From contig JBAZKH010000003.1 in the NCBI GenBank assembly GCA_041650935.1, positions 101,269 through 165,268 on the forward strand: a stretch of DNA of 64,000 nt, read 5' to 3'. The notes beneath the pieces are model-generated. The model did no database searches and was not told the origin of the DNA. It saw only the letters and a program-made list of their open reading frames with translations. Position numbers and translations under genes: made by a program. Of the stretch, positions 3,890-19,420 are shown in pieces (the first letter of the stretch is position 1; each line of letters starts with the position of its first letter). The stretch comes from Candidatus Omnitrophota bacterium. Lineage in GTDB: Bacteria; Omnitrophota; Gorgyraeia; 2-01-FULL-45-10.

Positions 3890-4951
3890 TTACTTCATCA
3901 GCCACTGCTCATTGGTCACAAAATGAGCAATAGTGTTCCGGTTATCATAGGAATAGACGACATGTATCAACCCGTGTTTGTCCTGTATGACGGAAGGGTA
4001 CCCGTAGACGTGGCCCGCCTTGCATTCGATCATCCTGACATGCGGCCAGGTCCTTCCCCCGTCGCGGGAAAGCGCGATGCTGAGGCTGTCGCGGTCCGTC
4101 CTGGCATTATTGAATGCCATAACGACATTACCGCTATCCAGCTTAATCATCTCGAGAGAAAATCCCGGGTTCCTGACGTTGGAAAGCCTCTGCTCTTTCC
4201 AACTGCGGCCGCCGTCACGGCTAACCGCCTGCCAGGCGAACCGCGGCCAGGTGCCTGTCCGCATAAGCGCGAATAGACTTAAGTCCGGGCGCTGGATTAT
4301 AGTGGGTTGTATGCCGAAGAAGAAGAGTATGTACCTGGGTCCTTTCCATGTCAGGCCGCAGTCCCTGGATATCACCGCCGCCGAAGATGTGCACAGGTCC
4401 GTGTATACAGGAAGAAGTATACTGCCGTCCTGAAGCTTTATCGGATGAGTCCTGCCCAAAAACCACGGAAGCACCTTGACAGCGCCGGCTTCGTCCCACG
4501 TCCGGCCGAAATCCGAAGATTTTTTTAACCATATAGTATCCTCGATGATCTTGAACGGCCATCTCTTCTCAATCCCCCAGAAGAGCCATAGCTTCTCATC
4601 GGGCCCAAAATAAAGTACCGGATTCTTGTTACCATGCCCCGGGGTGCGGTTTATTATCGAGGGCAGCGTCCATTTGTCGCCGCCGGCTGGCCTGCGCGAA
4701 CCCCAGATGACGGATTTAGGGGCCCATGAAGCATGCCACACCGCGTATAGATCCCCATTGGGAAGTTCGGCTATGCTGGACGCATGGGAAGAAGGAATAA
4801 GCCCCAGCGGGAATATGAATTCTTTATACGGCAGTTCGGGATACGGGCCCGACTCCCCGGCATGCGCAAGCGAAGGCGCGTAACTTGCGGCCGCCGCAAA
4901 AAACGCCGCCGCCAGGATAAAACTTGCCTTATTTATCCACATCTTTTTCAT
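3890..4951 (-). CDS. BNR/Asp-box repeat glycoside hydrolase, sialidase-like (secreted)
   Basis: Signal peptide, then repeated Asp-box motifs: SRDCGLTW, SRDGGRSW, SRDGGRTW, SSDFGRTW. This is the typical exo-alpha-sialidase/BNR beta-propeller pattern. Confidence 0.8.
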   Translation of the reverse strand: MKKMWINKASFILAAAFFAAAASYAPSLAHAGESGPYPELPYKEFIFPLGLIPSSHASSIAELPNGDLYAVWHASWAPKSVIWGSRRPAGGDKWTLPSIINRTPGHGNKNPVLYFGPDEKLWLFWGIEKRWPFKIIEDTIWLKKSSDFGRTWDEAGAVKVLPWFLGRTHPIKLQDGSILLPVYTDLCTSSAAVISRDCGLTWKGPRYILFFFGIQPTIIQRPDLSLFALMRTGTWPRFAWQAVSRDGGRSWKEQRLSNVRNPGFSLEMIKLDSGNVVMAFNNARTDRDSLSIALSRDGGRTWPHVRMIECKAGHVYGYPSVIQDKHGLIHVVYSYDNRNTIAHFVTNEQWLMK

Positions 4952-4980
4952 ATTTGCATTATATCATATTTTGGTGGAAA
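4926..4980 (-). repeat. 55-nt direct repeat copy 1 (leader plus first 8 codons MKKMWINKA of the BNR gene)
   Basis: gccttatttatccacatctttttcatatttgcattatatcatattttggtggaaa is about 43/55 identical to 5685-5739. Confidence 0.7.
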
Positions 4981-5100
4981 GGGCTTACTTAACGAAATCT
5001 TAAATATACTAATACAACCGCCAATAGAAGCAACAGGCCATAAAATATAACGCGTATCGTTACATGAGCCAGTATCTTTGAGAATATATTCTTCATTCTG

Positions 5101-5562
5101 CTATGGTCTTCTTTTCTTCTTTGACATCAATATAGAAATATCAACATCATCCTGCTTACGTCCGGATTTTTTCTTATTTTTTATCAATTCATTAAACCCT
5201 ATGAAAATCACTTTTTGCCTTCCGTAGGTACCTATGGCCCTATTTTCCCACGCCTCCTTGAAATCGCAACCTTCTATAGAGGTCATTAAATCAATTCTTA
5301 TAGGTTCATAACCAAGCTGAATAACTCTTCCTTTTCGGATTAAATCTTTTTCTTCAAGCGATAGGCTTTTGAATCCAAATTCCTCAAGCGATTTTATTAT
5401 TTTATGCGCATTATTCTCATCCGGTTCTACGAAGATATCCATATCCTTTGTGTATCTTGGCTCAGCATAAAAGGCGACAGCATACGCACCAACTATGCAA
5501 TATCTTACCTTGTTTTTGTTAAATAACTTTAATAACTCTTCGAAGTCCTTTTCCGTTTTCAA
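5101..5562 (-). CDS. Nucleotidyltransferase-fold protein (MNT/AbiEii-like family; putative toxin-antitoxin or accessory component)
   Basis: 153 aa. VRYCIVGAYAVAFYAEPRYTKDMDIFVEP resembles the widespread small 'nucleotidyltransferase family' proteins. The start codon appears to be TTG at 5560-5562, and it overlaps the upstream small ORF by 44 nt. Confidence 0.55.
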   Translation of the reverse strand: MKTEKDFEELLKLFNKNKVRYCIVGAYAVAFYAEPRYTKDMDIFVEPDENNAHKIIKSLEEFGFKSLSLEEKDLIRKGRVIQLGYEPIRIDLMTSIEGCDFKEAWENRAIGTYGRQKVIFIGFNELIKNKKKSGRKQDDVDISILMSKKKRRP

Positions 5563-5710
5563 TTTTCGAAGCCCTCAATTTATGATAAATTTCTCGTAAA
5601 AACTGCATAGTATCTATCCGCTCCGCTTTTGACATTTTAGCATAATAGGCGGAATCAAATTTTGCCGCTTCTTTAAACGAATTCGCCTTATTTATCCATA
5701 TTTTTTTCAT
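5519..5710 (-). CDS. Small partner protein of the nucleotidyltransferase-fold gene (unknown function)
   Basis: 63-aa ORF directly upstream of and overlapping the NTase-fold gene. It shares its first 8 codons plus about 30 nt of leader with the BNR gene at 4926-4980. Confidence 0.4.
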   Translation of the reverse strand: MKKIWINKANSFKEAAKFDSAYYAKMSKAERIDTMQFLREIYHKLRASKIENGKGLRRVIKVI

Positions 5711-5739
5711 GATTATATTATATCATGTTTTATGAAAAA
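5685..5739 (-). repeat. 55-nt direct repeat copy 2 (leader plus first 8 codons MKKIWINKA of the small ORF)
   Basis: gccttatttatccatatttttttcatgattatattatatcatgttttatgaaaaa. Together with copy 1 it brackets the 0.8-kb NTase-pair cassette. Confidence 0.7.
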
Positions 5740-5915
5740 ACAAAACGCCTACCGATAAACTACCGATAAACTTTTTTGATTCCCAACCTGGCTTGCCATA
5801 GCGGCCTTTTCTTTCATAGTCCTGGCCCATATCCGGCCGCAAATAGACACAATATCAGCCTCCCGTTGTTTAGGGGTCATCATGTGATAAAAAGTTCCTT
5901 TCATGCTTTTGGTTT

Positions 5916-7004
5916 ATGGTATATAATACGGGTATGAAAGGCCGTATTATGCCATTTAACCCAAAATATACCATAACCGAAAAAATACTCTATAACCTCA
6001 CCATGATTGCCGCGGCCCGTGAGGTTATAGAGAGCTCTTATCTTATCCCTAAATGGGAAGCGTCGCTTCGCAGGCAGGCAAAACTGCGCAACACCCATTC
6101 GTCCACCGCCATTGAAGGCAATAAACTTACACTTGAACAAGTTGAGGCCCTTGCTGATGGTAAGGATGTTATCGCTACCGATAAAGACAAGAAGGAAGTG
6201 CTTAATTACCTTGAGGCGCTGGACGCTATTCATTCCTTTGCCGAGAAAGGCAATGTCAGGGTCGAAGACCTTCTTAATATTCACAGAATGGTTTCAAAGA
6301 ACGTCTTGCGGAATAATAAACACAGCGGCGCCTTCCGCGACCGGCAGGTCTTTGTGGGTAGACGTGTTTTTGACGGAACAGGATTTAAGGAAGAGGTAGA
6401 ATACATGCCTCCGTCCACCCGGGACGTACCTAATCTGGTAAAGGAATTTATTGCCTGGCTTAATTTAGATAAGACATGGGAAATAAATCCGGTTTTACTT
6501 GCCGGGATTACCCACTACGAGATCGCCAGGATCCATCCTTTTATTGACGGCAATGGTCGGACAGCCCGGCTTTTTGCGACGCTTATTATTTACTTAAGCG
6601 GCTTTGACCATCGCAGACTTTTTGCCCTCGATGATTTTTATGACCGTGACAGGCAGGCGTATTACGCGGCCTTGAAAACAGCCCAGGATAATAACAATGA
6701 CATCAGCAAATGGCTTGAATACTTCACCGCAGGCGTAGCATATTCTGTTAATGAGATAAAAGAGGCTGTTCTGAAATTGGGGGCTAAGAAAAAACGCGAT
6801 TCAAAAGAGCAAATCCCTCTTACCGACAAACAGATGAAGATCGTCGAATTTATCAATGCACGCGGCAAAGTCACTAACAAAGATATGCAGACGCTTTTTA
6901 AGATTTCGGCTCAGGCCGTGCACAAGGAGCTGGCAAAGCTGGTAGAGCTTAAAGTAATCAAACCGCAAGGCGCCGGACGTTCGCTGTATTACGTTTTGGA
7001 ATAA
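5916..7004 (+). CDS. Fic family protein (AMPylase/adenylyltransferase) with C-terminal winged-HTH
   Basis: Canonical Fic motif HPFIDGNGRTARL. The C-terminal ~60 aa are DeoR/wHTH-like (KQMKIVEFINARGKVTNKDMQTLFKISAQAVHKEL). The true start may be the internal MKG or MPF Met. Confidence 0.85.
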   Translation: MVYNTGMKGRIMPFNPKYTITEKILYNLTMIAAAREVIESSYLIPKWEASLRRQAKLRNTHSSTAIEGNKLTLEQVEALADGKDVIATDKDKKEVLNYLEALDAIHSFAEKGNVRVEDLLNIHRMVSKNVLRNNKHSGAFRDRQVFVGRRVFDGTGFKEEVEYMPPSTRDVPNLVKEFIAWLNLDKTWEINPVLLAGITHYEIARIHPFIDGNGRTARLFATLIIYLSGFDHRRLFALDDFYDRDRQAYYAALKTAQDNNNDISKWLEYFTAGVAYSVNEIKEAVLKLGAKKKRDSKEQIPLTDKQMKIVEFINARGKVTNKDMQTLFKISAQAVHKELAKLVELKVIKPQGAGRSLYYVLE

Positions 7005-7007
7005 ACA

Positions 7008-7046
7008 AGCGATTGATGATTAGGTTGATGATTAGGTTGATGATTA
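7008..7046. repeat. Short tandem repeat (ttgatgattagg x3) immediately after the Fic stop codon
   Basis: The sequence gattgatgattaggttgatgattaggttgatgattattagg is seen directly. Confidence 0.7.
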
Positions 7047-7199
7047 TTAGGCGGCTCCCCTCAGTTGACGATTATAGAACTTTAATGGGGGAGTTTATAG
7101 AGTTTTGTTATACTAAGGAGGCGGAGGCAATGAGACTAAATATATGATTACTGCTCAAACAGGCTTGAAGGTGACAAGAAAACAATCTCGTCGAATAAA

Positions 7200-7475
7200 T
7201 TATTTATTAGGACTCATCAAAGGAAGCTTTGCAATAGTTTGCTGAGAATAAGCTTCATAAGTTGTTGCCATTCGACTTGCTAAATATACATTACCGCATT
7301 TAAGACAAGTAATTTTCCAGCCAGGGTTTCTATCCTGTTCGTTTTTCAATGCGCTCATTTCATAACCACACGTAAGACATTTAAGGCCGACATACTTTGT
7401 TGGCGTTACAGTAACAGCAAATACACATGATGTTACTAAAATTATCGCTAATAAAAAACTCGGGATTCTTAACAT
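7200..7475 (-). CDS. Small secreted zinc-ribbon-like protein (two CxxC pairs)
   Basis: 91 aa with a signal peptide and CLTCGYEMS...CLKCGN, in an AT-rich stretch. Confidence 0.45.
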   Translation of the reverse strand: MLRIPSFLLAIILVTSCVFAVTVTPTKYVGLKCLTCGYEMSALKNEQDRNPGWKITCLKCGNVYLASRMATTYEAYSQQTIAKLPLMSPNK

Positions 7476-7600
7476 AATATGCCTTTCTTCAAATAATCTT
7501 CACCTAACAGTATTTGGTGAAATACGAACCGTCTTACCATTCTGCCGTACCGCTTTTTTTAACGCCGCTTCGGCTTTGTCCTGTAAAGACATTCTCTTTT

Positions 7601-7816
7601 TTACGATTTCACCCATCCGACTTTTCGATGAGATTGCACACAATCCCTCAGATACATATTGATTAAAATCTGATAAGGTACGTCCATCTCGTCTGCCAGA
7701 TGCTTAAAATACGCTATGACATCGGAGCCAATCCGTATCGTTACTGGTTTTTTTAGCCTTGCAGCATATGGATTGCGCTTACCATGTAATTTTGAAAAAT
7801 CATATTCTGTTCTCAT
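7601..7816 (-). CDS. brnA: BrnA antitoxin (type II TA)
   Basis: 71 aa: MRTEYDFSKLHGKRNPYAARLKKPVTIRIGSDVIAYFKHLADEMDVPYQILINMYLRDC, a hallmark BrnA sequence, immediately downstream of brnT. Confidence 0.85.
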   Translation of the reverse strand: MRTEYDFSKLHGKRNPYAARLKKPVTIRIGSDVIAYFKHLADEMDVPYQILINMYLRDCVQSHRKVGWVKS

Positions 7817-7819
7817 ATT

Positions 7820-8104
7820 TTACTCCTTTCGATAATTATCAGCCTCAGGGCGGGTCGCTTTCCTCGCTGAAATTATCCTTATAGTATTTCCTTTTCTTGT
7901 GCAATAACACACGACCAACATCCGTAACTTAAAACTAAAGCCCAGCATTATAAATCTATCCTCATCCTCTGAATGATCCGGGTCAAAATATTCTATGGCA
8001 TTCTCATCATAAAAAACAGTTTGTGCCTCTTCAAAAGAAACGCCATGCTTTCTTTTGTTAAGCAACGCTTTTGGATTGTCCCATTCAAAACGAATATCAT
8101 TCAT
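7820..8104 (-). CDS. brnT: BrnT toxin (DUF497 ribonuclease, type II TA)
   Basis: 94 aa: FEWDNPKALLNKRKHGVSFEEAQTVFYDENAIEYFDP...RIISARKAT, the characteristic BrnT motif set, with a 4-nt spacing to brnA. Confidence 0.85.
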   Translation of the reverse strand: MNDIRFEWDNPKALLNKRKHGVSFEEAQTVFYDENAIEYFDPDHSEDEDRFIMLGFSFKLRMLVVCYCTRKGNTIRIISARKATRPEADNYRKE

Positions 8105-8174: not shown

Positions 8175-8218
8175 GATCCTCAAAACAAGAACGCCCACCG
8201 TTAAATGATGGGCGTTCT
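8175..8218 (-). terminator. Rho-independent terminator downstream of tRNA-Asn (minus strand)
   Basis: GC-rich stem AGAACGCCCA/TGGGCGTTCT with a 10-nt loop. It is followed on the minus strand by UGUUUUG. Confidence 0.55.
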
Positions 8219-8223
8219 CAACA

Positions 8224-8576
8224 TGGCTCCCCCGCGAGGACTCGAACCTCGGACACTCTGGTTACGATCTGACTCCGATTACTCGGAGAGTCGGACTATA
8301 CCATTACCATGGCCTTTTTTAGGCTTTAGGTAGCGAGTCTCTAGTCTCTGCACCTTCCTTACTTCGCTCGTAAGACGCCTGGATAAGAGTCGAGCTTCGT
8401 AAGGCTTGGCTCAGGATTGACCCTTCGGCGCGGCCAAATATCCAACAACGGCCTTGCTCAGGGCGTTCCCTGAATTTACTCGCTTTTCACCGCAACGTTT
8501 CCGTTGCGGGCTGCTAACTTTAGGCGCTTTGCGCCTCGTGCACAGCCAGATGCTCTACCGACTGAGCTACAGGGGA
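8224..8576 (-). tRNA. tRNA-Asn (anticodon GUU) interrupted by a group I intron. The exons are 8542-8576 and 8224-8264, giving a mature length of 76 nt with CCA encoded.
   Basis: The joined exons give UCCCCUGUAGCUCAGUCGGUAGAGCAUCUGGCUGU|UAACCAGAGUGUCCGAGGUUCGAGUCCUCGCGGGGGAGCCA. D-arm, T-arm (GGUUCGAGUCC) and the 7-bp acceptor stem all pair. The sequence is very close to E. coli tRNA-Asn, which also has U1-A72 and the loop CUGUUAA. Confidence 0.8.
8265..8541 (-). ncRNA. Group I intron (IC3-like, Azoarcus/Anabaena tRNA-intron type), 277 nt, inserted in the anticodon loop (inferred between positions 35 and 36)
   Basis: The intron contains AAGGUGCAGAGACUAGAGAC...ACCUAAAG...GGUAUAGUCC (P7 GACUA/UAGUC plus J8/7), GAGCCAAGCCUUACGAAGCU and UAAAUUCAGGGAA. 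All closely resemble the Azoarcus pre-tRNA-Ile intron core. It ends in G (omega G), and the preceding exon ends in U. Confidence 0.75.
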
Positions 8577-8635
8577 ACGATTTATACAAAGAGCTGGGGA
8601 AAGTGTAGCACAATCCGATATTTTTTTCAAATACT

Positions 8636-9751
8636 TTAGCCCTGCTCCAAAAGATAAGGCGCGGGACGACCCAGGAAGAAACCCTGGCCCGCCTTGACCC
8701 CGAGGCCGATCAACGTATCGAGCTCTTTTTCGGTCTCTATGCCTTCGGCGATGGTAATGATCTTATTCTGTTCGCAGAATGATAAGATGGCCTTTACCAG
8801 GTTCTGTTTTTTGACATTGGTATCTATATCGCGGAGCAGGGCGATGTCGATCTTGGCGTAACCCGGGTCTATCTCGGCGATGGAGTCGAGACTGGAATAG
8901 CCGCTGCCGACATCGTCGACGGCTATCCCGAAACCCTGCGAGTTGATCACGCGCAGCGTCCGGCAAAAGACCGCGAAATCCTTTATCTCCGCGCGCTCGG
9001 TGATCTCCAGGACGATCTGCGACGGCTTACCATAAAGAGCGGTGATCTCGCCGAACTGCCCGGATTCGATGATATAAGGGCTGCAATTAAAGAAAAATAG
9101 CTTCTTATCGATCTCCGCGCCTATCTTTTCCAGCGCTTTCCGGCGGTAAAGCATCTCCAGGTCCAAGAACATCCCGCAGTTTAAGGCGCTCTGGAACAAT
9201 TTTTCCGGGTTTTCCAGCCGGCTCCCTTCCGGGCCGCGCACCAGCACTTCGTAAGCGAATATCTCGCGAGGCCGCAGGTAACAGACGGGCTGGAAGAGCA
9301 CGGAGACCAGTCCATCCTGTATAATATGCTTCAACTCTTTGACAAGCGATAATTTCTCCCCGTCCATATCTTCGGAGAAGCCGCTCCGCCTCAACAAGGC
9401 TTCGATACGGGCAAAAAGCTCTTCCATGTCGGCGGATTTGTTTATATAATCGTCGGCGCCGATCTGCAAGCCCTCAACTTTGTCCCTGGACATATTCTTC
9501 GCGGTCAGCATGATTACGGGGATATTCCGCGTCGCGCCGTCCTGCCGTATCCGCCCGCATATCTCATACCCGCCCATAACGGGCATCATCACATCCAGCA
9601 GAATGAGATCCGGTTTCTCTTTCACCTTCTCCAGGGCCGCCGCGCCGTCATGGACCATCGTCACTTTATAACCCCGCAGCTGCAGGCGCATAGCCATCGT
9701 CTGCGCGAAGTCGACCTCGTCATCCACAAGTAAGATATGCTTTTTAACCAT
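8636..9751 (-). CDS. Response regulator with receiver plus EAL (c-di-GMP phosphodiesterase) domain
   Basis: Receiver: LLVDDE...DLILLDVMMP...MLTAK. EAL domain: EVLVRG, EITE, DDVGSGYSSL, EGIETE. The track start at 9871 overlaps the upstream kinase, so the start was chosen at the MVKKHILLVDDE Met (9749-9751). Confidence 0.85.
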   Translation of the reverse strand: MVKKHILLVDDEVDFAQTMAMRLQLRGYKVTMVHDGAAALEKVKEKPDLILLDVMMPVMGGYEICGRIRQDGATRNIPVIMLTAKNMSRDKVEGLQIGADDYINKSADMEELFARIEALLRRSGFSEDMDGEKLSLVKELKHIIQDGLVSVLFQPVCYLRPREIFAYEVLVRGPEGSRLENPEKLFQSALNCGMFLDLEMLYRRKALEKIGAEIDKKLFFFNCSPYIIESGQFGEITALYGKPSQIVLEITERAEIKDFAVFCRTLRVINSQGFGIAVDDVGSGYSSLDSIAEIDPGYAKIDIALLRDIDTNVKKQNLVKAILSFCEQNKIITIAEGIETEKELDTLIGLGVKAGQGFFLGRPAPYLLEQG

Positions 9752-9767
9752 AGGATTATTTTTAAGT

Positions 9768-11204
9768 TTAAGGCGGGCTAATGGGTAATGTGAAACTGAA
9801 CTTCGCGCCGCCGTCTTTACCGCTTTCCGCCCAGATCTTTCCTTTGTGCAGAAGAATGATCTCCCTGGCAATGGACAATCCCAGCCCGGTCCCGCTTATA
9901 TCCGTATGCGCCCTCTCCCCTTTTACCTGGTAGAATTTATCGAAAATTTTTCCAAGGTCTTTTTCGTCTATCCCGGCGCCGGTGTCGGATACGCTCACGA
10001 TAAGATTCTTACCGTCATTATCGAAACCTGCCTCGATAGTTATAACGCCCTGCCGCGGAGTAAACTTTATTGCGTTGCCGATAATATTATTTATGACCTG
10101 GATCATCCTGTTATAATCCAGGTTTATGTCCGGCATATCCCGGTGAATCCTCTTCTCTATCCTGATAGCCTTGGCTATCGCCCAGGCGCTCAGGCCGTCG
10201 CAGGCATCGTTTACCAGTTTTTCGACGGAATACCGCGCAACCTGCAGCTCCAATTTGGATGCCTCGAGCTTCGCCTCGTCGAGTAAGTCGTTGACTAATA
10301 GAGAGAGCCTTTGAAGGCTGCGTTTGGCTATGCTCAGAAAATTTTCCTGCTCCTTGGTAATATCGCCGAGCGATCCTCCCAATAGCAGCGCCACGGCATT
10401 TTGGACGGTTATAATGGGCGTGCGCAGTTCATGCGAGACCTTGGACACAAAATCCGACTTGAGCTGGTCGAGCTCCTTCTGTTTCGTCACATCGCTTAAG
10501 ACGGAGACCATGCCGACCGTCTGCCCGTTCTCGTTTTCTATGATCGCGCTGCTCGACCTCAGTATCCGCTTGGTCTCGTCTTCCGGGCTCGTTATCTCTA
10601 TCTCCGAATTCTCTTCGCCGGCAGGATTCGTAGACATGGAAATCAGGTGCTCTTTCTTGAGGTTCTCCAGGATAGGCTTACCGACTTTGTCCTTCTGCAA
10701 AACACCGAGGAGCTTTTCCGCAGTAGGGTTCATCATGATGACGTTGCCTGCGGCATCGACCACAACGAGGCCCTGGGCGATACTGCGTATGACCGCTTCC
10801 GTCTCTTTTTTGGCGACGAGCACATTATTATACTTCTGCCACGCGGCCTGCTCGCTCCGCTCTTTCTGCCGGATGACAACGTTATACTGGTCCGCCAGTT
10901 CCCGCCCTTTTAACTCCACCCTCTTCTGTGTCTCGTTAATGAAAATTCTCGATATCGTCTCGGCCATCGCCTTGCCGCGCGGCTCGGCGCCCAGCGTCTT
11001 CTCTATGGTCGCAAAGATCGTATCCTTCATCTCTTTATCGGTAATAACTTCACCGGCAGGAGTAGCGCCGTCGCGGAGACTTTCGGTATTGGCTGCCCCG
11101 GCCTGGAACGACATGCGTGATAAATAGTTCGATAATATAACAACGGCAACCGCGAGTGCCGCTATTCCCAAAAATATCAGCGGAGCATAAAAGATAAATG
11201 ACAT
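9768..11204 (-). CDS. Membrane sensor histidine kinase (PAS domain, HisKA, HATPase_c)
   Basis: N-terminal TM segment, a PAS-like region, H-box SHELRTP and G-boxes DTGAGI...GTGLGLSIA. It lies immediately upstream of the EAL response regulator. Confidence 0.85.
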   Translation of the reverse strand: MSFIFYAPLIFLGIAALAVAVVILSNYLSRMSFQAGAANTESLRDGATPAGEVITDKEMKDTIFATIEKTLGAEPRGKAMAETISRIFINETQKRVELKGRELADQYNVVIRQKERSEQAAWQKYNNVLVAKKETEAVIRSIAQGLVVVDAAGNVIMMNPTAEKLLGVLQKDKVGKPILENLKKEHLISMSTNPAGEENSEIEITSPEDETKRILRSSSAIIENENGQTVGMVSVLSDVTKQKELDQLKSDFVSKVSHELRTPIITVQNAVALLLGGSLGDITKEQENFLSIAKRSLQRLSLLVNDLLDEAKLEASKLELQVARYSVEKLVNDACDGLSAWAIAKAIRIEKRIHRDMPDINLDYNRMIQVINNIIGNAIKFTPRQGVITIEAGFDNDGKNLIVSVSDTGAGIDEKDLGKIFDKFYQVKGERAHTDISGTGLGLSIAREIILLHKGKIWAESGKDGGAKFSFTLPISPP

Positions 11205-11264
11205 TCCTGCCTCCTGGTATGTCTTACAGGATAAAGCTTAACATAAAAAAATTACATGCGCAAG

Positions 11265-12917
11265 CTATCCGGACCCGCACTTTTTGAGATTCCGGATAGC
11301 GTCGTCATAAAAAGGATATATCGTAACCGCCCTTTTGAAATAGCGCCTTGCGCCGGCGATATCCCCGCGCATCGCCATCATGGCTCCTATATTGTTTGCT
11401 GCCCGGAAATATTCCGGATCGAGGCGAAGAGCCTTGCGATACGCCGTCTCCGCCTTCGGGCGGTCTTTCATGTCGAGATAGATATCCCCGAGCGCCTTAT
11501 AGCCCTCCGCATCGTCAGGGTATAGGCAGATGTACTCTTTGATTTCGGCAAGCGCTCTATGCGGCTCCGATCTTTTTAGATAAACCTCCGCCAGGCTTAG
11601 ATGTGTCCGAGAATATTCCCTGGGCTTGACACCGGCCATATCGATATTCACGAGGCCGCAGCAAATTAGCAGTATGCAAACGGCATAGACAAGGCCTCTT
11701 CTGTCCGCCGAGGCTATCCGCTTCCATATATCATCGAGCGCAAATACGGCGAATAACAGGAGCATTACTGCAAGAAATAACCTGTGGCGCGAACTTGTCT
11801 GGAAAGGAACGAGCGTCAGGAACGTAGCTATCAAGAATAGATAGTGCAACGCAAGTTCCCGCCGCCGCTTAAACATAAGTACCGCGCCGCACAGTCCCAG
11901 CGGCCCTATGAGCCAGAAACCCGGAAGACTGAATATGAGCGGCGAAAAATTCCTGTTATACAATATCTCTTTATCCGCGCATATCTCGACGCTCGATAAG
12001 ATCGATAAGGCATTCGTAAAAATGTGTTTAATAAAAAGTACGGGTTCCTGCGAGATCATCAACATGGCCTTCGCTATCCAGAACCTGCCCTGGCCATTCC
12101 CGCTGAGCACATTTGCGCGGATCGGCTCAAGCATCCACTTATCCCAGACGAGCCCTGCCCTCACGCCATACATCGTATCAAGATGCGGGTTAAGGCCCAG
12201 GAAGAGATTAAGCCCGCCGTGCGCCTGCAATAATACAAATTCGCCGCTCACCAGATAATGGCGCAAGGTTATCGGCGCAATAATAACGGCCGCCCCCGAT
12301 ATTAAAATAAGCGCATTCTTCACAAAAGACCCCCGGCGCGATATCATAAATATCCACACCAGAATAAAAGGGACGATCAGCGCTATATTGGGCCTTGCGG
12401 CGGCAGAGAGTCCGATAAATAATCCGGCGAGAAAGGTTATCGCCGGACGCTTGTCGTCCGCCGCCCTCCACAAAAGCAGAAAAGCCGCCAGGCTGAGGAA
12501 TATAGCAAGCGTCTCCGTCACAAGTTCGCACGACCAGTAGATAAGCGGCCAGTAAAAAGCCGCGGCAAGGCCCGCTATTATGCCGGCCACCCGCCCGCAC
12601 GATTTCCGGGAGATATGAGCTATAAGGACACAGGCCAGGGATGATACCACAACGCCAAAAAGACGTCCTATATAGTAGCCGCCGCCGAATATCTTATACA
12701 GGAAGGCAAGCAGATACGGATATAGCGGACCATGGTACGGGACACCGCTCCACAACAATCTTCCGGAGAGTATCTCCTTCGCCCACCTGTCGTATTCGAA
12801 TTCGTCGGCAATAAAGAATCCGAAGAGCGGACTCTGCGTAAGTTGATTGAGATAGATCAGCCTGATGACAAACGCGAGAAAAAATATTATGAGGTATGTG
12901 CGCCGTGTATTGGCCAT
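11265..12917 (-). CDS. GT-C fold glycosyltransferase family 39 (ArnT/PMT-like) fused to C-terminal TPR repeats
   Basis: 550 aa with about 11 TM helices and the typical N-terminal DEFEY-type loop (FIADEFEYDRWAKE). The C-terminal ~120 aa are TPR-like (AEGYKALGDIYLDMKDRPKAETAYRKALRLDPEY...). Confidence 0.75.
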   Translation of the reverse strand: MANTRRTYLIIFFLAFVIRLIYLNQLTQSPLFGFFIADEFEYDRWAKEILSGRLLWSGVPYHGPLYPYLLAFLYKIFGGGYYIGRLFGVVVSSLACVLIAHISRKSCGRVAGIIAGLAAAFYWPLIYWSCELVTETLAIFLSLAAFLLLWRAADDKRPAITFLAGLFIGLSAAARPNIALIVPFILVWIFMISRRGSFVKNALILISGAAVIIAPITLRHYLVSGEFVLLQAHGGLNLFLGLNPHLDTMYGVRAGLVWDKWMLEPIRANVLSGNGQGRFWIAKAMLMISQEPVLFIKHIFTNALSILSSVEICADKEILYNRNFSPLIFSLPGFWLIGPLGLCGAVLMFKRRRELALHYLFLIATFLTLVPFQTSSRHRLFLAVMLLLFAVFALDDIWKRIASADRRGLVYAVCILLICCGLVNIDMAGVKPREYSRTHLSLAEVYLKRSEPHRALAEIKEYICLYPDDAEGYKALGDIYLDMKDRPKAETAYRKALRLDPEYFRAANNIGAMMAMRGDIAGARRYFKRAVTIYPFYDDAIRNLKKCGSG

Positions 12918-12980
12918 AGGAAGACATTTTATCAGATTCCGCGCTAAATCGGAAGTTTTCCATGATATACTTATCGCATA

Positions 12981-13409
12981 ATGAAAAATCGCATTACGAA
13001 AGAGGATATAGCGCTGGCGTCCCTTCTCCTTATCGCCTTCATAATAAACATGTCACTGCTCGCGCAAGCGCTTAGATCGATCACCGAGATAGACAAGGTG
13101 GATTGGATCACCGCTTATGAAAACCGGTTCGACGGCCTTAAAAAAACTCTGCCGGGATATGGCACGGTCGGCTATGTAACGAATAACCAGGCGGAAGATA
13201 TTCGCTACATCTTCGAAGAGTCCAAGAGATATTACCTGGCACAGTATGCGCTCGCACCGATTGTGCTCGAATACGGCGGTAGAAAAGGACCTGTCGTGGG
13301 TAATTTCAAGGATCCGGCCGATGGGCGGGACGCGCTTAAGAAGATTGGATTGCCTTTAGTGCGCGACTTTGGAAACGGCGTCGTACTGCTGGAGGAGGCA
13401 AAGCGATAA
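12981..13409 (+). CDS. Membrane-anchored hypothetical protein
   Basis: 142 aa with a single N-terminal TM segment. Its stop overlaps the start of the next gene (TAATG), indicating translational coupling. Confidence 0.5.
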   Translation: MKNRITKEDIALASLLLIAFIINMSLLAQALRSITEIDKVDWITAYENRFDGLKKTLPGYGTVGYVTNNQAEDIRYIFEESKRYYLAQYALAPIVLEYGGRKGPVVGNFKDPADGRDALKKIGLPLVRDFGNGVVLLEEAKR

Positions 13410-14800
13410 TGCTCCCTATCTTATTTTCTATCCTCGTCCCGGCATCGATAGGCTTCTTCTTCGTATCTATCGTCTTAAAAGACAGCAAAATACTCTCCCG
13501 TAATAACCTGTTCAAAGTATGCCTGGGGACCGGGATCGGTTTCGGCATCACCTCATATTTATTCTTTATATGGTGCGTGATATTCGGCCCGGCATGTAGA
13601 GGTTACTTTATAATAGAGGCGCTCCTCCTGGCGTCTCTTATAATAATACACTGCTCCACGAGCCGGAAAGGTCTGCCAGGCGCCGGTGGAAAACACGACG
13701 CTCCCGGAAAAAGGAATATTCTGCATAAATTACTCGAACCCTGTTTCTATCTTTCGGCAATAGGCGCGGCCGTAACGCTATCTATCTTGTCGCTCCTCAA
13801 CCCGCACGGATCCTGGGACGCGTGGATGACCTGGAACCTGCACGCAAAGTTCATCTTCCTGGGCGGGGAGCACTGGAAAGGCATATTCGCGCCGGCACTT
13901 GCCTGGTCGCATCCCGATTATCCTTTTCTGATCCCGGCAGCTATCGCCCGGTGCTGGATATTCATAGGCCGCGGCACGACGGTGATACCGGCAACGGTAT
14001 CGATCCTATTCACTCTCGCAACCGCCGGAACTTTAACCGCCGCCTTGATCATCATGCGCGGGCGGAGCCAGGGGTTCCTGGCGGGGATGGTACTACTCGC
14101 CACCCCGTTTTTTATAACGCAGGGCGCCGCCCAATACGCGGATATCCCCGCGGCTTTCTTTTATCTGGCAACGGTCGTGCTATTATGCCTTTGGGATAAC
14201 TCGGCGCCGGCAGCTAACGGACTGCCGCTCCTTGCCGGGTTAACGGCGGGATTTTCGGGATGGACAAAGAATGAAGGACTGCTCTTCCTGACAGCCATAA
14301 TAGTTGCCCGCGCCTTCGCCCGGATAATAATAAGGCGGGAGCGTAAAAGCTATCTTAAGGAGACATTATACTTTTTCGCCGGAGCCATACCTATACTACT
14401 GCTCATAATATACTTTAAAAGCGCGCTGGCAACGCATAGCGATCTCCTATCAGACCGGACGATCGGTTTGGCCGTAAAAAATCTGGCGGATCTGCCAAAA
14501 TGCCGTTTGATCTTATCCGAATTTTTCAATACGGCCATGAATTTCGGCCAATGGCGCGGTCCGTTCATGCCGCTATTATTCTTTTGCGCCCTCCTTTTCG
14601 GAATAAAGGTGCGGGTAAAAGAGAGGCCCGTCTTCGCCGCTATCCTGGCCGCCGCATTCATGATGCTGGCGGGCTACTTCTTCATATTCCTGACCACTCC
14701 ATATGGCGTCGAATGGCATATGGGCACCGCGCTTGACCGGCTCTTCCTGCAACTATGGCCCTGCATAGTATTTATATATTTCCTGGCAACTCTTGCATAA
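13409..14800 (+). CDS. Polytopic membrane protein, possibly GT-C-like glycosyltransferase/glycan-processing protein
   Basis: 463 aa with at least 10 hydrophobic helices. It is divergent from the GT39 gene. Confidence 0.5.
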   Translation: MLPILFSILVPASIGFFFVSIVLKDSKILSRNNLFKVCLGTGIGFGITSYLFFIWCVIFGPACRGYFIIEALLLASLIIIHCSTSRKGLPGAGGKHDAPGKRNILHKLLEPCFYLSAIGAAVTLSILSLLNPHGSWDAWMTWNLHAKFIFLGGEHWKGIFAPALAWSHPDYPFLIPAAIARCWIFIGRGTTVIPATVSILFTLATAGTLTAALIIMRGRSQGFLAGMVLLATPFFITQGAAQYADIPAAFFYLATVVLLCLWDNSAPAANGLPLLAGLTAGFSGWTKNEGLLFLTAIIVARAFARIIIRRERKSYLKETLYFFAGAIPILLLIIYFKSALATHSDLLSDRTIGLAVKNLADLPKCRLILSEFFNTAMNFGQWRGPFMPLLFFCALLFGIKVRVKERPVFAAILAAAFMMLAGYFFIFLTTPYGVEWHMGTALDRLFLQLWPCIVFIYFLATLA

Positions 14801-14826
14801 CACGGCTTATATGTTATACTAATGGC

Positions 14827-15156
14827 ATGCGCGGAAGAGAAAAGATTATTATAGTAATACTTTGTATTTTTTGTCTTGCAGGATGCGCCCAGTCGATGAA
14901 ACAACGCGCCAACATGATCAACGCCATGAACGGTAAATTCGGCCATGTTAATTACACCAGGACATATATCTTTTCGACGTTCGGCCGGCCCAATTCGAAG
15001 ACCGTGTCGGTCACAGACGGCGTAACCACGGAAGTTTGGGTTTATAAGACACGGATGGCCGACAAGGATACTATCTTTGTCAAGCGGTCCGCAAAAGAAA
15101 GATGCATGAAGATAACGATGACTAACACCATAGTCACGAATGTCTCTTATGAATGA
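14827..15156 (+). CDS. Lipoprotein (lipobox LAGC)
   Basis: MRGREKIIIVILCIFCLAGCAQS is a classic signal peptidase II lipobox. The track ORF starts earlier (14755), but the internal Met fits better. Confidence 0.55.
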   Translation: MRGREKIIIVILCIFCLAGCAQSMKQRANMINAMNGKFGHVNYTRTYIFSTFGRPNSKTVSVTDGVTTEVWVYKTRMADKDTIFVKRSAKERCMKITMTNTIVTNVSYE

Positions 15157-15165
15157 GGAGTAGCT

Positions 15166-16239
15166 ATGAACTTTAAAGACGTTTTCGAGATAATGATAGC
15201 CAGGAAAGCCTCCGATGCTTTCATAGTGCCCGGCGGCCCGTTACGCGCCAGGATATATTCGGAGGTGCAAACTATCGGAGACTATATATTCACCCCGAAA
15301 GACATAGAAAAGTATGTCTCCGAAATAACAGATACTGCGGAAAGGGAAATACTGAAAGAGACCAAAAGTTGCGAACTGGGCGTTAATCACGACAACCGCT
15401 GGAGGTTCCGCATAGGCGTATTTTACCAGAGGGACGTTATTTCGATAGTCTTGAGAAAGATCGACCTTGATATATTGAACTTCGAGGAATTAAACCTGCC
15501 CGTTCACGCATTTCAAAAGCTGTGCCAGGAGCGCCGCGGCCTTATCCTGCTTACGGGGCTGACCGGAAGCGGCAAATCCACGGCTATCGCCTCCATGATC
15601 GAGCATATCAATAAGAACTACGGGCGGCACATAATGACCATCGAGGAACCGATAGAGTTCACGTTCACCGACAAAAAATCGATAATAAACCAGCGGGAAA
15701 TAAACAGGGACGTCCGCACATACCAGAAGGCCCTGAAAGAGACGGCAATGCACTCGCCCGACGTCCTCTATATAGGCAATATCAGGGACCGCGAAACATG
15801 TTACGCGGCTCTAAGCGCCGCCGAAACCGGCGTGCTCGTATTCTCGACGATCCACACCATCAATGCCCCTTCCGCGATCGAGCGCATAGTAAACTTCTTC
15901 CCGCCGGAGCAGCAGCATCTCATATTCAACCAGCTTTCTTTCTTTTTGAAGGCCGTCGTTTCCCTGCGCCTCCTCCCCCGCGCCGATGCCGAAGGTCTGA
16001 TACCGGCCTATGAAATAATGACGCTATCCTCTACCGTTTCGGCCCTTATAAAAGAACATAAAATATGGGACATACCTCAATATATGGAATCGGGCGAGAT
16101 CTACGACATGATGACCTTCAACCAGTGCCTCTGGAGCCTTATCAAGAAAAAACACATTACGACCGAAACCGCCCTGCAATATTCGGATGAAAAGGCAAAT
16201 CTGTCATTAATAATGAGGAAGGAAAGCTACGCTAAATAG
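15166..16239 (+). CDS. pilT: Type IV pilus retraction ATPase PilT/PilU family
   Basis: 357 aa. Walker A LTGLTGSGKSTAIASMIEHIN, Asp box, His box (IGNIRDRET) and Walker B (VLVFSTIHT). Confidence 0.85.
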   Translation: MNFKDVFEIMIARKASDAFIVPGGPLRARIYSEVQTIGDYIFTPKDIEKYVSEITDTAEREILKETKSCELGVNHDNRWRFRIGVFYQRDVISIVLRKIDLDILNFEELNLPVHAFQKLCQERRGLILLTGLTGSGKSTAIASMIEHINKNYGRHIMTIEEPIEFTFTDKKSIINQREINRDVRTYQKALKETAMHSPDVLYIGNIRDRETCYAALSAAETGVLVFSTIHTINAPSAIERIVNFFPPEQQHLIFNQLSFFLKAVVSLRLLPRADAEGLIPAYEIMTLSSTVSALIKEHKIWDIPQYMESGEIYDMMTFNQCLWSLIKKKHITTETALQYSDEKANLSLIMRKESYAK

Positions 16240-16290
16240 TGAAGCTCCACCGCCTTACAGCGGTGACTTCATGGGTAAATTAAGGGGGTA
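16238..16290 (+). repeat. 50-nt post-stop-codon repeat (copy 1) between pilT and the PilZ gene. It contains the hairpin CACCGCcttacaGCGGTG nested in TGAAG/CTTCA.
   Basis: TAGTGAAGCTCCACCGCCTTACAGCGGTGACTTCATGGGTAAATTAA. It overlaps the pilT stop codon. See copy 2 at 36715-36768. Confidence 0.65.
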
Positions 16291-16295
16291 TTACG

Positions 16296-16679
16296 ATGTC
16301 GAACGATTACGCGGGAAAAGATAAGAGAGAATTTTTCAGATACAGGCACGAAGGGCCGGCTCTTTTTAAAGAGGTATCGAAAAGCAATAATACCGTCTCT
16401 GATACCGCCCAGGCAATCACCAGAAACCTTAGCGCCTCCGGGATGCTCTTCACAAGCCAATACCCGCCGAGGCTCTCGAGCATAATAATCCTGGAGATCG
16501 ATTACAGGACGACGAGACTATGCGAAGAGATAGAGAACCGCGCCCTCATACTGAACAACAAACTGCTCGGCAAAGTGGTGCGTATCGAAGATAACGACAA
16601 TGGTTCTTACGATATCGGCATCGCCTTCGTGAAAAAATCGGAGAGCCTGCCGCAGGATGTCTTGACGCTCATAAAATAA
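16296..16679 (+). CDS. PilZ domain protein (c-di-GMP receptor)
   Basis: KREFFRYRHE (RxxxR) followed by NLSASGMLF (D/NxSxxG) are the two c-di-GMP-binding motifs of PilZ. Confidence 0.75.
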   Translation: MSNDYAGKDKREFFRYRHEGPALFKEVSKSNNTVSDTAQAITRNLSASGMLFTSQYPPRLSSIIILEIDYRTTRLCEEIENRALILNNKLLGKVVRIEDNDNGSYDIGIAFVKKSESLPQDVLTLIK

Positions 16680-16688
16680 AAAGGTGAG

Positions 16689-18065
16689 GTGCGCATGACA
16701 AAGTTATTCATCTATATTACCGCGGCGATAGCGGCGCTGGCAGGTCTTCTCTTCGGATATGATACCGGTGTAATATCGGGCGCTATACTATTCATAAAGG
16801 ACCAGTTCGCTTTAAGTTCCCGCTCCATAGAAAACGTCGTCAGCGCCGTGCTTCTTGGCGCCGTGATCGGCGCCGCGTTAAGCGGCGCCCTGGCCGACCG
16901 GTTCGGGCGGCGCAAGGTCATAATAGTCACCGCCATCCTATTCGCGGCGGGCGCAATCGGCGCCAGCTTCGCTATAAACGTAGCCATGATCATAACCTTC
17001 AGGCTCATCATCGGAATAGCGATAGGCGTCGCTTCATATACCGCCCCTCTATACATCTCTGAAATATCGCCGCCGCAGGCAAGGGGCGCGCTCGTATCTT
17101 TGAACCAGCTTATGATAACCTGCGGCATAGTCGTCTCTTATCTTGTCGATTACATCTTATCCGTGGGACAATCGGAATGGCGGTGGATGTTCGGCCTGGG
17201 AGCGGTCCCGGCAGTCATCCTCATTATAGGAATGATCGCCCTCTCCGAGAGCCCGCGCTGGCTCGTAAGTAAAAATCGCGACGAAGAGGCGCGGGCGGTG
17301 CTTTCACACGTTATGCCGGCCAAAGAGATCGACACGGAGATACAGGCTATACGCAGTTCGCTCACAGTCAAACAGGGAGGCTGGAAGGAGCTTATGGCGC
17401 CGTGGGTAAGGCCGGCGCTGGGCGTCGGTATAATCCTTGCCTTCCTCCAGCAGTTCACAGGGATAAATACTATAATCTATTATGCTCCTACCATATTCGA
17501 ATTCGCCGGGTTCGAGTCGCATAAAATTTCGATACTAGCCACTGTAGGCGTAGGCGTAGTAAACGTCCTCATGACGCTTGTCGCAATATGGTTCTTAGAC
17601 CGCCTCGGCAGGAAACCCCTGTTATACATAGGGATGGCCGGCATGACAATATCGCTCGGTATACTGGGATTTGCTTTTCACTGTTCCAACCTGGGCGGCG
17701 GTCTTAAATTAATATCCGTTTTGAGCGTCGTCGCCTATATCGCGTCATTCGCCATAAGCCTGGGGCCCATCTTCTGGCTCATGATATCCGAAATCTACCC
17801 GCTGGAGATAAGAGGGCGCGCAATGAGCCTTGCGACCGTAGCAAATTGGGGATGCAACATGGTCGTTGCCGCGACGTTCCTCACCCTTACGGAGAAACTC
17901 GGTAAATCGGGTGCATTCTGGTTCTACGGCGCTGTCTCGGCCATCGGTATAATATATTGCTACTTTTATGTTCCCGAGACGAAAGGGCACACCCTGGAAG
18001 AGATAGAAGCCCATCTGCGTTCTAGAAAGAAACTGGCCCTGCTTGGGCGCAAAGGGAGAGCCTAA
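16689..18065 (+). CDS. MFS sugar porter family transporter (sugar:H+ symporter)
   Basis: 458 aa with 12 TM helices. Motifs GRRK, PESPRWL, PETKG and GYDTGVISGA. Confidence 0.85.
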   Translation: MRMTKLFIYITAAIAALAGLLFGYDTGVISGAILFIKDQFALSSRSIENVVSAVLLGAVIGAALSGALADRFGRRKVIIVTAILFAAGAIGASFAINVAMIITFRLIIGIAIGVASYTAPLYISEISPPQARGALVSLNQLMITCGIVVSYLVDYILSVGQSEWRWMFGLGAVPAVILIIGMIALSESPRWLVSKNRDEEARAVLSHVMPAKEIDTEIQAIRSSLTVKQGGWKELMAPWVRPALGVGIILAFLQQFTGINTIIYYAPTIFEFAGFESHKISILATVGVGVVNVLMTLVAIWFLDRLGRKPLLYIGMAGMTISLGILGFAFHCSNLGGGLKLISVLSVVAYIASFAISLGPIFWLMISEIYPLEIRGRAMSLATVANWGCNMVVAATFLTLTEKLGKSGAFWFYGAVSAIGIIYCYFYVPETKGHTLEEIEAHLRSRKKLALLGRKGRA

Positions 18066-19412: not shown

Positions 19413-19420
19413 CGCTTACT

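Follow-up and report, generated by a model that had tools for sequence, protein, structure and literature searches.

A group I intron between anticodon nucleotides 35 and 36 of a tRNA-Asn(GUU) gene in an Omnitrophota-like bacterium

Among the group I introns of bacterial tRNA genes, the intron in the tRNA-Ile(CAU) gene of Azoarcus sp. BH72 is the prototype of subgroup IC3; this intron of approximately 205 nucleotides (nt), inserted at 36/37 in the anticodon loop, has a compact P1-P9 structure without P2.1, P5abc or P7.1/P7.2, tetraloops on P2 and P9 and a CCUAA...AUGG receptor in P8. The four classical settings of bacterial tRNA introns have been expanded to 21 in the survey by Williams (2020; bioRxiv 10.1101/2020.01.27.920355), and position 35/36 of tRNA-Asn(GUU), designated Asn.4Ug, is one of these settings as quoted by Nakagawa et al. 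(2026; mSystems, PMC13011429). The latter study reported 15 tRNA-Asn(GUU) 35/36 introns from Patescibacteria, 3 from Cyanobacteriota, 3 from Nitrospirota and 1 from Bipolaricaulota, demonstrated accurate self-splicing in vitro and pointed out that the host genes are missed or miscalled by standard tools. Table S5 of that study gives 28 introns at 35/36, and the Asn entries examined among these are all labelled IA1 or IA2. Here, a 64-kb stretch of DNA from an Omnitrophota bacterium (the window, in what follows, is this whole stretch) was analyzed around a single split tRNA gene. It is considered highly probable that this locus represents a functional, Omnitrophota-like tRNA-Asn(GUU) gene in which a self-splicing group I ribozyme of 277 nt separates U35 from U36.

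The original prediction for this locus had suggested that tRNA-Asn(GUU) and the site between positions 35 and 36 could be a new host and a new insertion site for group I introns. This suggestion does not hold, as Asn.4Ug was already catalogued in 2020 and introns of this class were spliced in vitro in 2026 (PMC13011429). A search of the literature on Omnitrophota and group I introns found no paper mentioning an Asn 35/36 intron in this phylum. What is new may be restricted to the host phylum and to the compact, IC3-like core, the host tRNA and the site having been published.

The split tRNA-Asn(GUU) gene

The Rfam group I intron model (RF00028, Intron_gpI) matched 8531..8272 on the minus strand with 77.7 bits (E 5e-18), compared with a curated gathering score of 50 bits, and the match covered the full length of the model (positions 1-253 of 253). 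This was the sole Rfam match within the window. Joining of the two flanking exons yielded a canonical 76-nt cloverleaf that ARAGORN identified as tRNA-Asn(gtt), with a U1-A72 pair, the anticodon loop CUGUUAA and the T-arm GGUUCGAGUCC. The original prediction had placed an interrupted tRNA-Asn at 8224-8576, with a 277-nt insert whose removal gives a textbook tRNA-Asn; the coordinates proved exact, and the strand, which it did not give, is the minus strand. The core strings that it quoted (AAGGUGCAGAGACUAGA, the P7 pairing GACUA/UAGUC, ACCUAAAG and GAGCCAAGC) were all recovered in the intron sequence, and two of its proposed checks, a search with the Rfam group I model and a P1-P9 fold with a guide pairing to the exon sequence GGCUGU, turned out in its favor.

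The position of the junction follows from uninterrupted alleles of the same gene. Intron-less tRNA-Asn genes in an Omnitrophota metagenome-assembled genome (MAG; locus L005) and in the MAG RA.bin60 (locus L006) are identical to the joined exons of the window, including the sequence CUGU|UAACC across the junction; both scored 69.6 bits with the Rfam tRNA model and were also called as Asn by ARAGORN. Since these empty-site alleles correspond to the ligated sequence, the junction is fixed at the DNA level. In addition, the junction is unable to slide in the window copy because the T at the exon end differs from the G at the intron end and the G at the intron start differs from the T at the start of the 3' exon. 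The intron therefore lies between the anticodon nucleotides U35 and U36, with a U at position -1 and a terminal guanosine (omegaG) at its end, as originally predicted from the sequence and now confirmed by the L005 and L006 alleles.

Standard gene finding does not recover this gene. Run with default settings on the window, ARAGORN missed the split gene and called zero tRNAs, and the Rfam tRNA model likewise gave no match here; no other tRNA was found in the 64-kb window by either method, which agrees with the earlier statement that this is the only one. When introns were allowed, ARAGORN reported the gene as tRNA-Thr(cgt) i(34,277), and the exon boundaries could accordingly be placed elsewhere, with a tRNA-Thr gene split at 33/34. 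Miscalls of this kind have been reported for the Asn 35/36 intron class, for which both tFind and ARAGORN are ambiguous (PMC13011429). The tRNA-Thr boundary would make the intron end in C rather than in G, the intron-less alleles carry exactly the sequence ligated at 35/36, this junction cannot slide, and the guide sequence of the intron is complementary to GGCUGU|UAAC; a split tRNA-Thr gene is therefore regarded as extremely improbable. The tRNA-Thr(cgt) call itself was dismissed on the basis of omegaG and the intron-less alleles. As the default ARAGORN search and the Rfam tRNA model are blind to the split gene, tRNA-Asn seems to be missing; genomes such as this one would be scored as lacking tRNA-Asn, to the detriment of estimates of genome completeness.

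The pairings that would position the splice sites can be read from the intron and the exons (Table 1). The last six nucleotides of the 5' exon, GGCUGU, represent the 5' strand of P1 and pair with the GCAGCC portion of the internal guide sequence GUUAGCAGCC, with a U.G wobble at the splice site, while the GUUA portion of the guide pairs with the UAAC of the 3' exon to form P10. The guide is thus complementary to the ligated sequence GGCUGU|UAAC except for the wobble, and its GUUAGCAGC stretch was invariant in 9/9 sequences of a family alignment (alignment A1, see below). Downstream of P1, the helix order is P1-P2-P3-P4-P5-P6-P7-P3'-P8-P7'-P9, with extensions limited to simple P5 and P6 hairpins; the helix map shows no P7.1/P7.2, P2.1 or P5abc. 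The longest open frame within the intron encodes 55 amino acids (aa) and has no similarity to endonucleases.

Splicing of this gene would proceed as in other group I introns. Transcription would generate a 353-nt precursor, in which an exogenous guanosine bound in P7 would cleave at the 5' splice site; a P7 G-C pair is found at the expected guanosine-binding position and, by analogy with established group I introns, would serve this role. The terminal G would then enter the guanosine site, P10 would form between the guide and the start of the 3' exon, and ligation of the exons would restore a normal anticodon loop. The base pairings are evident from the sequence, and the chemistry of splicing is that expected from the family and from in vitro experiments reported for other members of the Asn 35/36 class. 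Such a mechanism leaves the known workings of these introns unchanged.

Candidate signals for expression of the gene were identified on both sides. A gap of 26 nt separates the sigma-70-like promoter candidate upstream from the first nucleotide of the tRNA; the region has 3 such sites compared with 0.6 expected. A terminator consensus scan of the region reported none, and the terminator-like hairpin downstream of the CCA surfaced by folding only; this hairpin is kept in related loci, where the blastn alignment reaches approximately position 8181.

Table 1. Features of the tRNA-Asn(GUU) gene, its group I intron and its flanks (coordinates refer to the window)
Feature	Coordinates	Strand	Description and basis
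tRNA-Asn 5' exon	8576..8542	minus	35 nt, reads UCCCCUGUAGCUCAGUCGGUAGAGCAUCUGGCUGU, ends ...GGCUGU
5' exon content	8542..8576	minus	nt 1-35: acceptor strand, D-arm, anticodon stem, C32 U33 G34 U35
Group I intron	8541..8265	minus	277 nt, GCACGAGG...AGAUCG, without open reading frame; Rfam RF00028 and boundaries from intron-less alleles
L1 hairpin GAGGCGCAAAGCGCCU	8522..8537	minus	P1 loop; aligns with first hairpin of the reading frame-bearing L002, L009 and L010 and with partly deleted forms
Internal guide sequence GUUAGCAGCC	8509..8518	minus	Read from sequence; P1 recovered in minimum free energy folds
P2 hairpin CCGCAACG-GAAA-CGUUGCGG	8490..8509	minus	L2 is a GAAA tetraloop; 7/8 pairs doubly compensated in the family
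P3 5' strand AGCGAG	8479..8484	minus	Pairs with 8337..8332; 98% of cells paired; A-U / G.U / G-C series at one pair
P4-P5-P4' domain	8412..8472	minus	P5 extension specific to this copy (GGCC...GGCC)
P6/P6a domain	8352..8410	minus	Extension hairpin specific to this copy
P7 5' strand GAGACUA	8342..8348	minus	Bulged A; pairs with 8298..8293; invariant in the 9 A1 sequences
P3 3' strand CUCGCU	8332..8337	minus	4 nt after P7
P8, 11-nt-receptor-like motif CCUAAA...CAUGG	8307..8330	minus	Fold and family comparison
P7 3' strand UAGUCC	8293..8298	minus	Pairs with P7 5' strand
P9 hairpin GACUCUCCGA-GUAA-UCGGAGUC	8271..8292	minus	L9 is GUAA
Terminal guanosine (omegaG)	8265	minus	Sequence; intron end
tRNA-Asn 3' exon	8264..8224	minus	41 nt, reads UAACCAGAGUGUCCGAGGUUCGAGUCCUCGCGGGGGAGCCA (UAACC...GGAGCCA), CCA encoded
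3' exon content	8224..8264	minus	U36 A37 A38, anticodon stem, variable loop, T-arm, acceptor strand, G73, CCA
Promoter candidate, sigma-70-like (TTGAAA, 17 nt, TG-TACACT)	8602..8630	minus	Consensus scan, pattern match only
Terminator-like hairpin and U-rich tail (to ~8182)	8187..8219	minus	RNAfold -22 kcal/mol, 3' of CCA

Conservation of the intron across its family

Relatives of the split gene were identified by scanning one genome per GTDB species with a pattern of 29 nt from the 5' exon, which retrieved 11 loci: 7 from Candidatus Omnitrophota, 1 from a Planctomycetia genome, 2 from RA.bin60 (labelled "Patescibacteria group") and 1 unrelated archaeal tRNA. A group I intron was found at the identical place in 8/11 loci (Rfam scores of 71-79.5 bits), and L005 and L006 were uninterrupted. 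The archaeal locus (L008:3670-3703, Aenigmatarchaeota MAG) is a tRNA-Asn gene with a nearly identical 5' half and a short insert just past the anticodon that is not a group I intron and presumably represents a protein-spliced archaeal intron. A further 26 loci were obtained when metagenomes were scanned with the conserved string that spans P9, omegaG and the exon, and the 5' exon had no matches in viral contigs. In all, 29 full-length introns (the window copy and 28 relatives, mostly from Omnitrophota MAGs) with 24 distinct cores were available, and 29/29 end in ...AGAUCG ahead of UAACC.

Alignment A1 contains the core from nine loci and was compared with a P2-P9 structure, including the P3/P7 pseudoknot, that was drawn by hand. 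Standard pairs accounted for 95.8% of cells, and 21 pairs were changed on both sides; by comparison, at most 42% of cells paired when the partners were slid by 1-3 columns as a control. The covariation score was 0.289, compared with 0.147 ± 0.014 in shuffled alignments, and 0/500 shuffles reached 0.289. While P4, P7 and most of P9 are invariant in A1 and are uninformative on covariation, these comparisons among sequences indicate that the P2-P9 fold is under selection. The host genes also vary in a manner consistent with function, as their T-stems differ by compensatory changes (CCGAGG/CCUCG, CGUAGG/CCUAC, CAGAGG/CCUCU and CCGUGG/CCACG), which is expected for working tRNAs.

These data bear on the possibility that the window copy is a dead relic, i.e., a pseudogene whose intron no longer splices while an intact tRNA-Asn gene elsewhere does the work. 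The window copy deviates at 0/101 columns with a conservation of 90% or more across the 24 distinct cores, every core helix is intact, its exons are identical to those of intact alleles, and its Rfam score of 77.7 bits is on par with the 71-79.5 bits of its relatives. Some features nevertheless speak for a relic and against a functional gene: the endonuclease gene carried by related introns has already decayed in this copy (see below), its P8 receptor contains an A.C opposition and its P5 a G.A, and P5 and P6 carry extensions unique to this copy. The visible genome is limited to 64 kb, and as the tRNA-Asn gene count of the host covers this window only, a second tRNA-Asn gene elsewhere is possible. 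Both allele types are also present in one related MAG, as RA.bin60 holds an intron-bearing, putatively HNH-encoding tRNA-Asn gene (L002, on an 861-bp contig) as well as the intron-less L006, with identical exons; the two may represent a true polymorphism, or strains may have been mixed during binning. The "Patescibacteria group" label of RA.bin60 is doubtful because its exons match those of Omnitrophota. In 7/8 intron-bearing MAGs, by comparison, the intron-bearing gene was the only match to the 29-nt pattern of the 5' exon, which, as far as the completeness of these MAGs allows, speaks against an intact back-up gene being the rule, and intron-bearing and intron-less copies of the same anticodon rarely coexist in a genome (PMC13011429). 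Taken together, a dead relic appears improbable, and a functional gene with a splicing intron is the preferred interpretation.

Probable endonuclease remnants and the neighborhood of the gene

The 29 introns differ in length primarily through their P1 loop, and three classes can be distinguished. In endonuclease-bearing introns (543-603 nt), this loop contains a pair of leader hairpins, a ribosome-binding site and an open reading frame (ORF) of approximately 111 aa, which continues across P1' and P2 and terminates at the UAA of J3/4. In remnant-bearing introns (217-401 nt), internal deletions of this cassette become progressively larger; members of this class include L014, L018, L025 (313 nt), L029 (355 nt), L016 (401 nt), L011 (283 nt), L022 (217 nt) and the window copy (277 nt), which retains the first leader hairpin only. 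Clean introns (202-236 nt) have a P1 loop of five nucleotides (UACAG).

The ORF was found in 13 loci by tblastn and has the invariant residues CxxC...EFHH...N...CxNCH, with one exception: in L023, the conserved His of CxxCH is replaced by Arg. It is 53% identical (E 5e-35) to an ORF translated from the Asn 35/36 intron of the Patescibacteria genome GCA_000503835.1 (Table S5, PMC13011429), and HNH (PF01844) endonucleases have been reported in four Patescibacteria Asn 35/36 introns in the same study. In profile searches, Pfam returned nothing for the ORFs at E values up to 0.01; with the limit relaxed to 10, it gave an HNH match below threshold and nothing else (PF01844, 16.1 bits, below the cut-off of 21.4, covering profile positions 1-46 of 47). 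The best PDB profile match, the HNH domain of McrA, was weak (E 0.033). No homologue of the endonuclease was found elsewhere in the window.

Judged from these alignments, the hairpin GAGGCGCAAAGCGCCU in the P1 loop of the window copy is a leader remnant of a deleted cassette for a probable HNH endonuclease, and the window intron is a decayed derivative of a mobile intron of this type from which the ORF has been deleted. The original prediction, which was correct in identifying the intron, missed this origin. It is probable that the window copy has lost independent mobility and persists because the tRNA requires splicing. With empty, HNH-bearing, decaying and clean forms at one tRNA site and with near-identical exons, every stage of the homing-endonuclease cycle appears to be represented in this family. 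Such a series at a single site is well suited to the study of intron gain, endonuclease loss and ribozyme minimization, and the relatives of 202-206 nt are candidate small ribozymes of a size comparable to the Azoarcus intron.

A second type of endonuclease was observed next to some of the related genes. In four loci (L003:1153-1440, L006:2465-2870, L021:419-733 and L037:729-1043), a relic of the tRNA 5' exon (nt 1-29) lies directly upstream of tRNA-Asn and is followed by a hairpin-forming insert of approximately 73 nt, by GGCUGU with the first intron nucleotides and by an 81-aa GIY-YIG ORF (Pfam PF01541, 58.4 bits), which extends into the 5' terminus of the complete tRNA. The presence of this ORF at the relic exon suggests that a second endonuclease family seems to be associated with the tRNA-Asn gene. 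The same insert of approximately 73 nt was also found at L026:2148-2220 (metagenome contig Ga0233423_10033433), where it separates nt 29 and 30 of the anticodon stem in an otherwise normal tRNA-Asn gene with a 184-nt intron; this tRNA could not fold if the insert were retained.

The sequences flanking the gene differ in their conservation. An Omnitrophota MAG locus (L012) aligned with window positions 8181-10781 at 78% DNA identity, and several other Omnitrophota loci aligned with 19.4-25.1 kb of the window at 67-76%; the window therefore derives from an Omnitrophota-like bacterium without a species-level counterpart among the genomes searched. In L007, L009, L003 and L004, the homologue of the sequence from window position 19434 onwards adjoins tRNA-Asn, whereas approximately 10.8 kb (8600-19430) lie between the two in the window. 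This stretch encodes a response regulator-EAL protein, a PAS histidine kinase, a PMT_2/TPR glycosyltransferase, a T2SSE ATPase and a PilZ protein, and at least 2.2 kb of its first part are shared with L012; it is a lineage-specific indel 5' of the tRNA. An independent Logan assembly contig (L001, SRR8542065_10164) is identical over 8.6 kb to window positions 8553-17141 and breaks inside the tRNA 5' exon at 8553. On the 3' side of the tRNA, positions 4000-8100 have a G+C content of 0.42-0.45 compared with approximately 0.50, and ORFs that look accessory by eye include one bearing the Fic-type motif HPFxxGNGR (5916-7004, plus strand), a BrnT/DUF497-like one of 94 aa (7820-8104, minus strand) and a nucleotidyltransferase-like one (5101-5562, minus strand). 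Based on this visual assessment of the ORFs, the 4000-8100 region could represent an island beside the tRNA.

Subgroup affinity and comparison with known introns

Subgroup IA is defined by the peripheral element P7.1/P7.2. This element is absent from the window intron, in which the spacer from P7 to P3' is approximately 4 nt long; the spacer is short in every member of the family, like that of IC3 reference introns. The core is also compact in the sense of IC3, with P2 present and with no P2.1, P5abc, P7.1/7.2 or P9.1 and beyond, and the window copy combines the L2 tetraloop GAAA, a variant P8 receptor (CCUAAA..CAUGG, with an A.C) and the L9 tetraloop GUAA. Within the family, L2 and P8 co-vary: an L2 GAAA accompanies a receptor-like P8 in 20 members (1 GAAA member has no such P8, and 2 loops were unread), and an L2 GCAA or GCGA accompanies a short P8 without receptor in 5/6. 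The description of the intron as Azoarcus-like IC3 in the original prediction thus stands with regard to the compact architecture without P7.1/P7.2, and the subgroup label itself is left between an IA-type lineage and IC3. Global pairwise identity was rejected as a means to decide between these subgroups, as it is non-discriminating at approximately 70-80% to both (71-75% with Asn introns of the IA type, 70-81% with IC3 introns).

An alternative to an Azoarcus-like IC3 intron is a member of an IA-type lineage that secondarily lost P7.1/P7.2. In an alignment with four published Asn introns (Table S5), the intron is colinear from the guide through P9 with the IA1- or IA2-labelled introns of Cyanobacteriota, Nitrospirota and Bipolaricaulota; they differ by a single clean block of approximately 34 nt, corresponding to P7.1/P7.2, which is present in the published introns only. 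IA-labelled Asn introns also share the insertion site and have a homologous endonuclease ORF in the same loop, and the P8 of the subtype formed by L003, L020 and L021 almost equals that of a cyanobacterial IA2 Asn intron. With the IA-defining element missing from the window copy, a short P7-P3' spacer throughout the family and a pairwise identity that separates neither option, the arguments for and against such a secondary loss are evenly poised.

The element has the appearance and the presumed mode of action of an IC3 ribozyme. It is best filed in the known Asn 35/36 class, and with regard to site, guide, endonuclease and colinearity it stands closest to the IA-labelled Asn introns. On balance, there is a slight preference for viewing the family as an undescribed, Omnitrophota-wide branch of the Asn 35/36 lineage, which would have shed P7.1/P7.2 and gained a GAAA/11-nt-receptor clamp between L2 and P8, and which would thereby have come to resemble an IC3 ribozyme of 202-206 nt. 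If this is true, the labels IA and IC3 can split a single evolving mobile lineage. In either case, the Asn 35/36 intron class is extended to Omnitrophota-like bacteria.

Compared with the Asn 35/36 introns described to date (Asn.4Ug; PMC13011429), the Omnitrophota-like family shares the host tRNA, the insertion site, the U(-1)/omegaG boundaries, a GCAGC-type guide and a colinear P1-P9 core, and in some of the published introns the P1 loop likewise contains a homologous HNH ORF (53% identity at the aa level). The published introns are labelled IA1 or IA2 and have the P7.1/P7.2 block of approximately 34 nt, which the Omnitrophota-like family lacks, and most members of the latter have the GAAA/11-nt-receptor pair of L2 and P8, unlike the published Asn 35/36 introns.

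The cyanobacterial IC3 introns in tRNA-Arg(CCU) at 36/37 and in tRNA-Leu(UAA) at 34/35 (Table S5, PMC13011429) have a very similar 3' half, with the shared string GAAGGU.(U/C)AGAGACUAGA-(8 nt)-ACCUAAAG...UAUGGUGAAGGUAUAGUCC and a global identity of 70-81%, but differ in their host tRNAs, sites and guides. Where endonucleases are present in these cyanobacterial introns, they are of the LAGLIDADG or PD-(D/E)XK type and are located elsewhere in the intron (PMC13011429).

By its general features, the Azoarcus intron is similar to the window intron in its architecture, its J6/7-P7 string and its P8 receptor, but resides in another tRNA and at 36/37 instead of 35/36. We know of no endonuclease-bearing relatives of the Azoarcus intron. 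The clean members of the Omnitrophota-like family have approximately the size of the Azoarcus intron, and the window copy, at 277 nt, is larger because of its L1 remnant and its P5 and P6 extensions.

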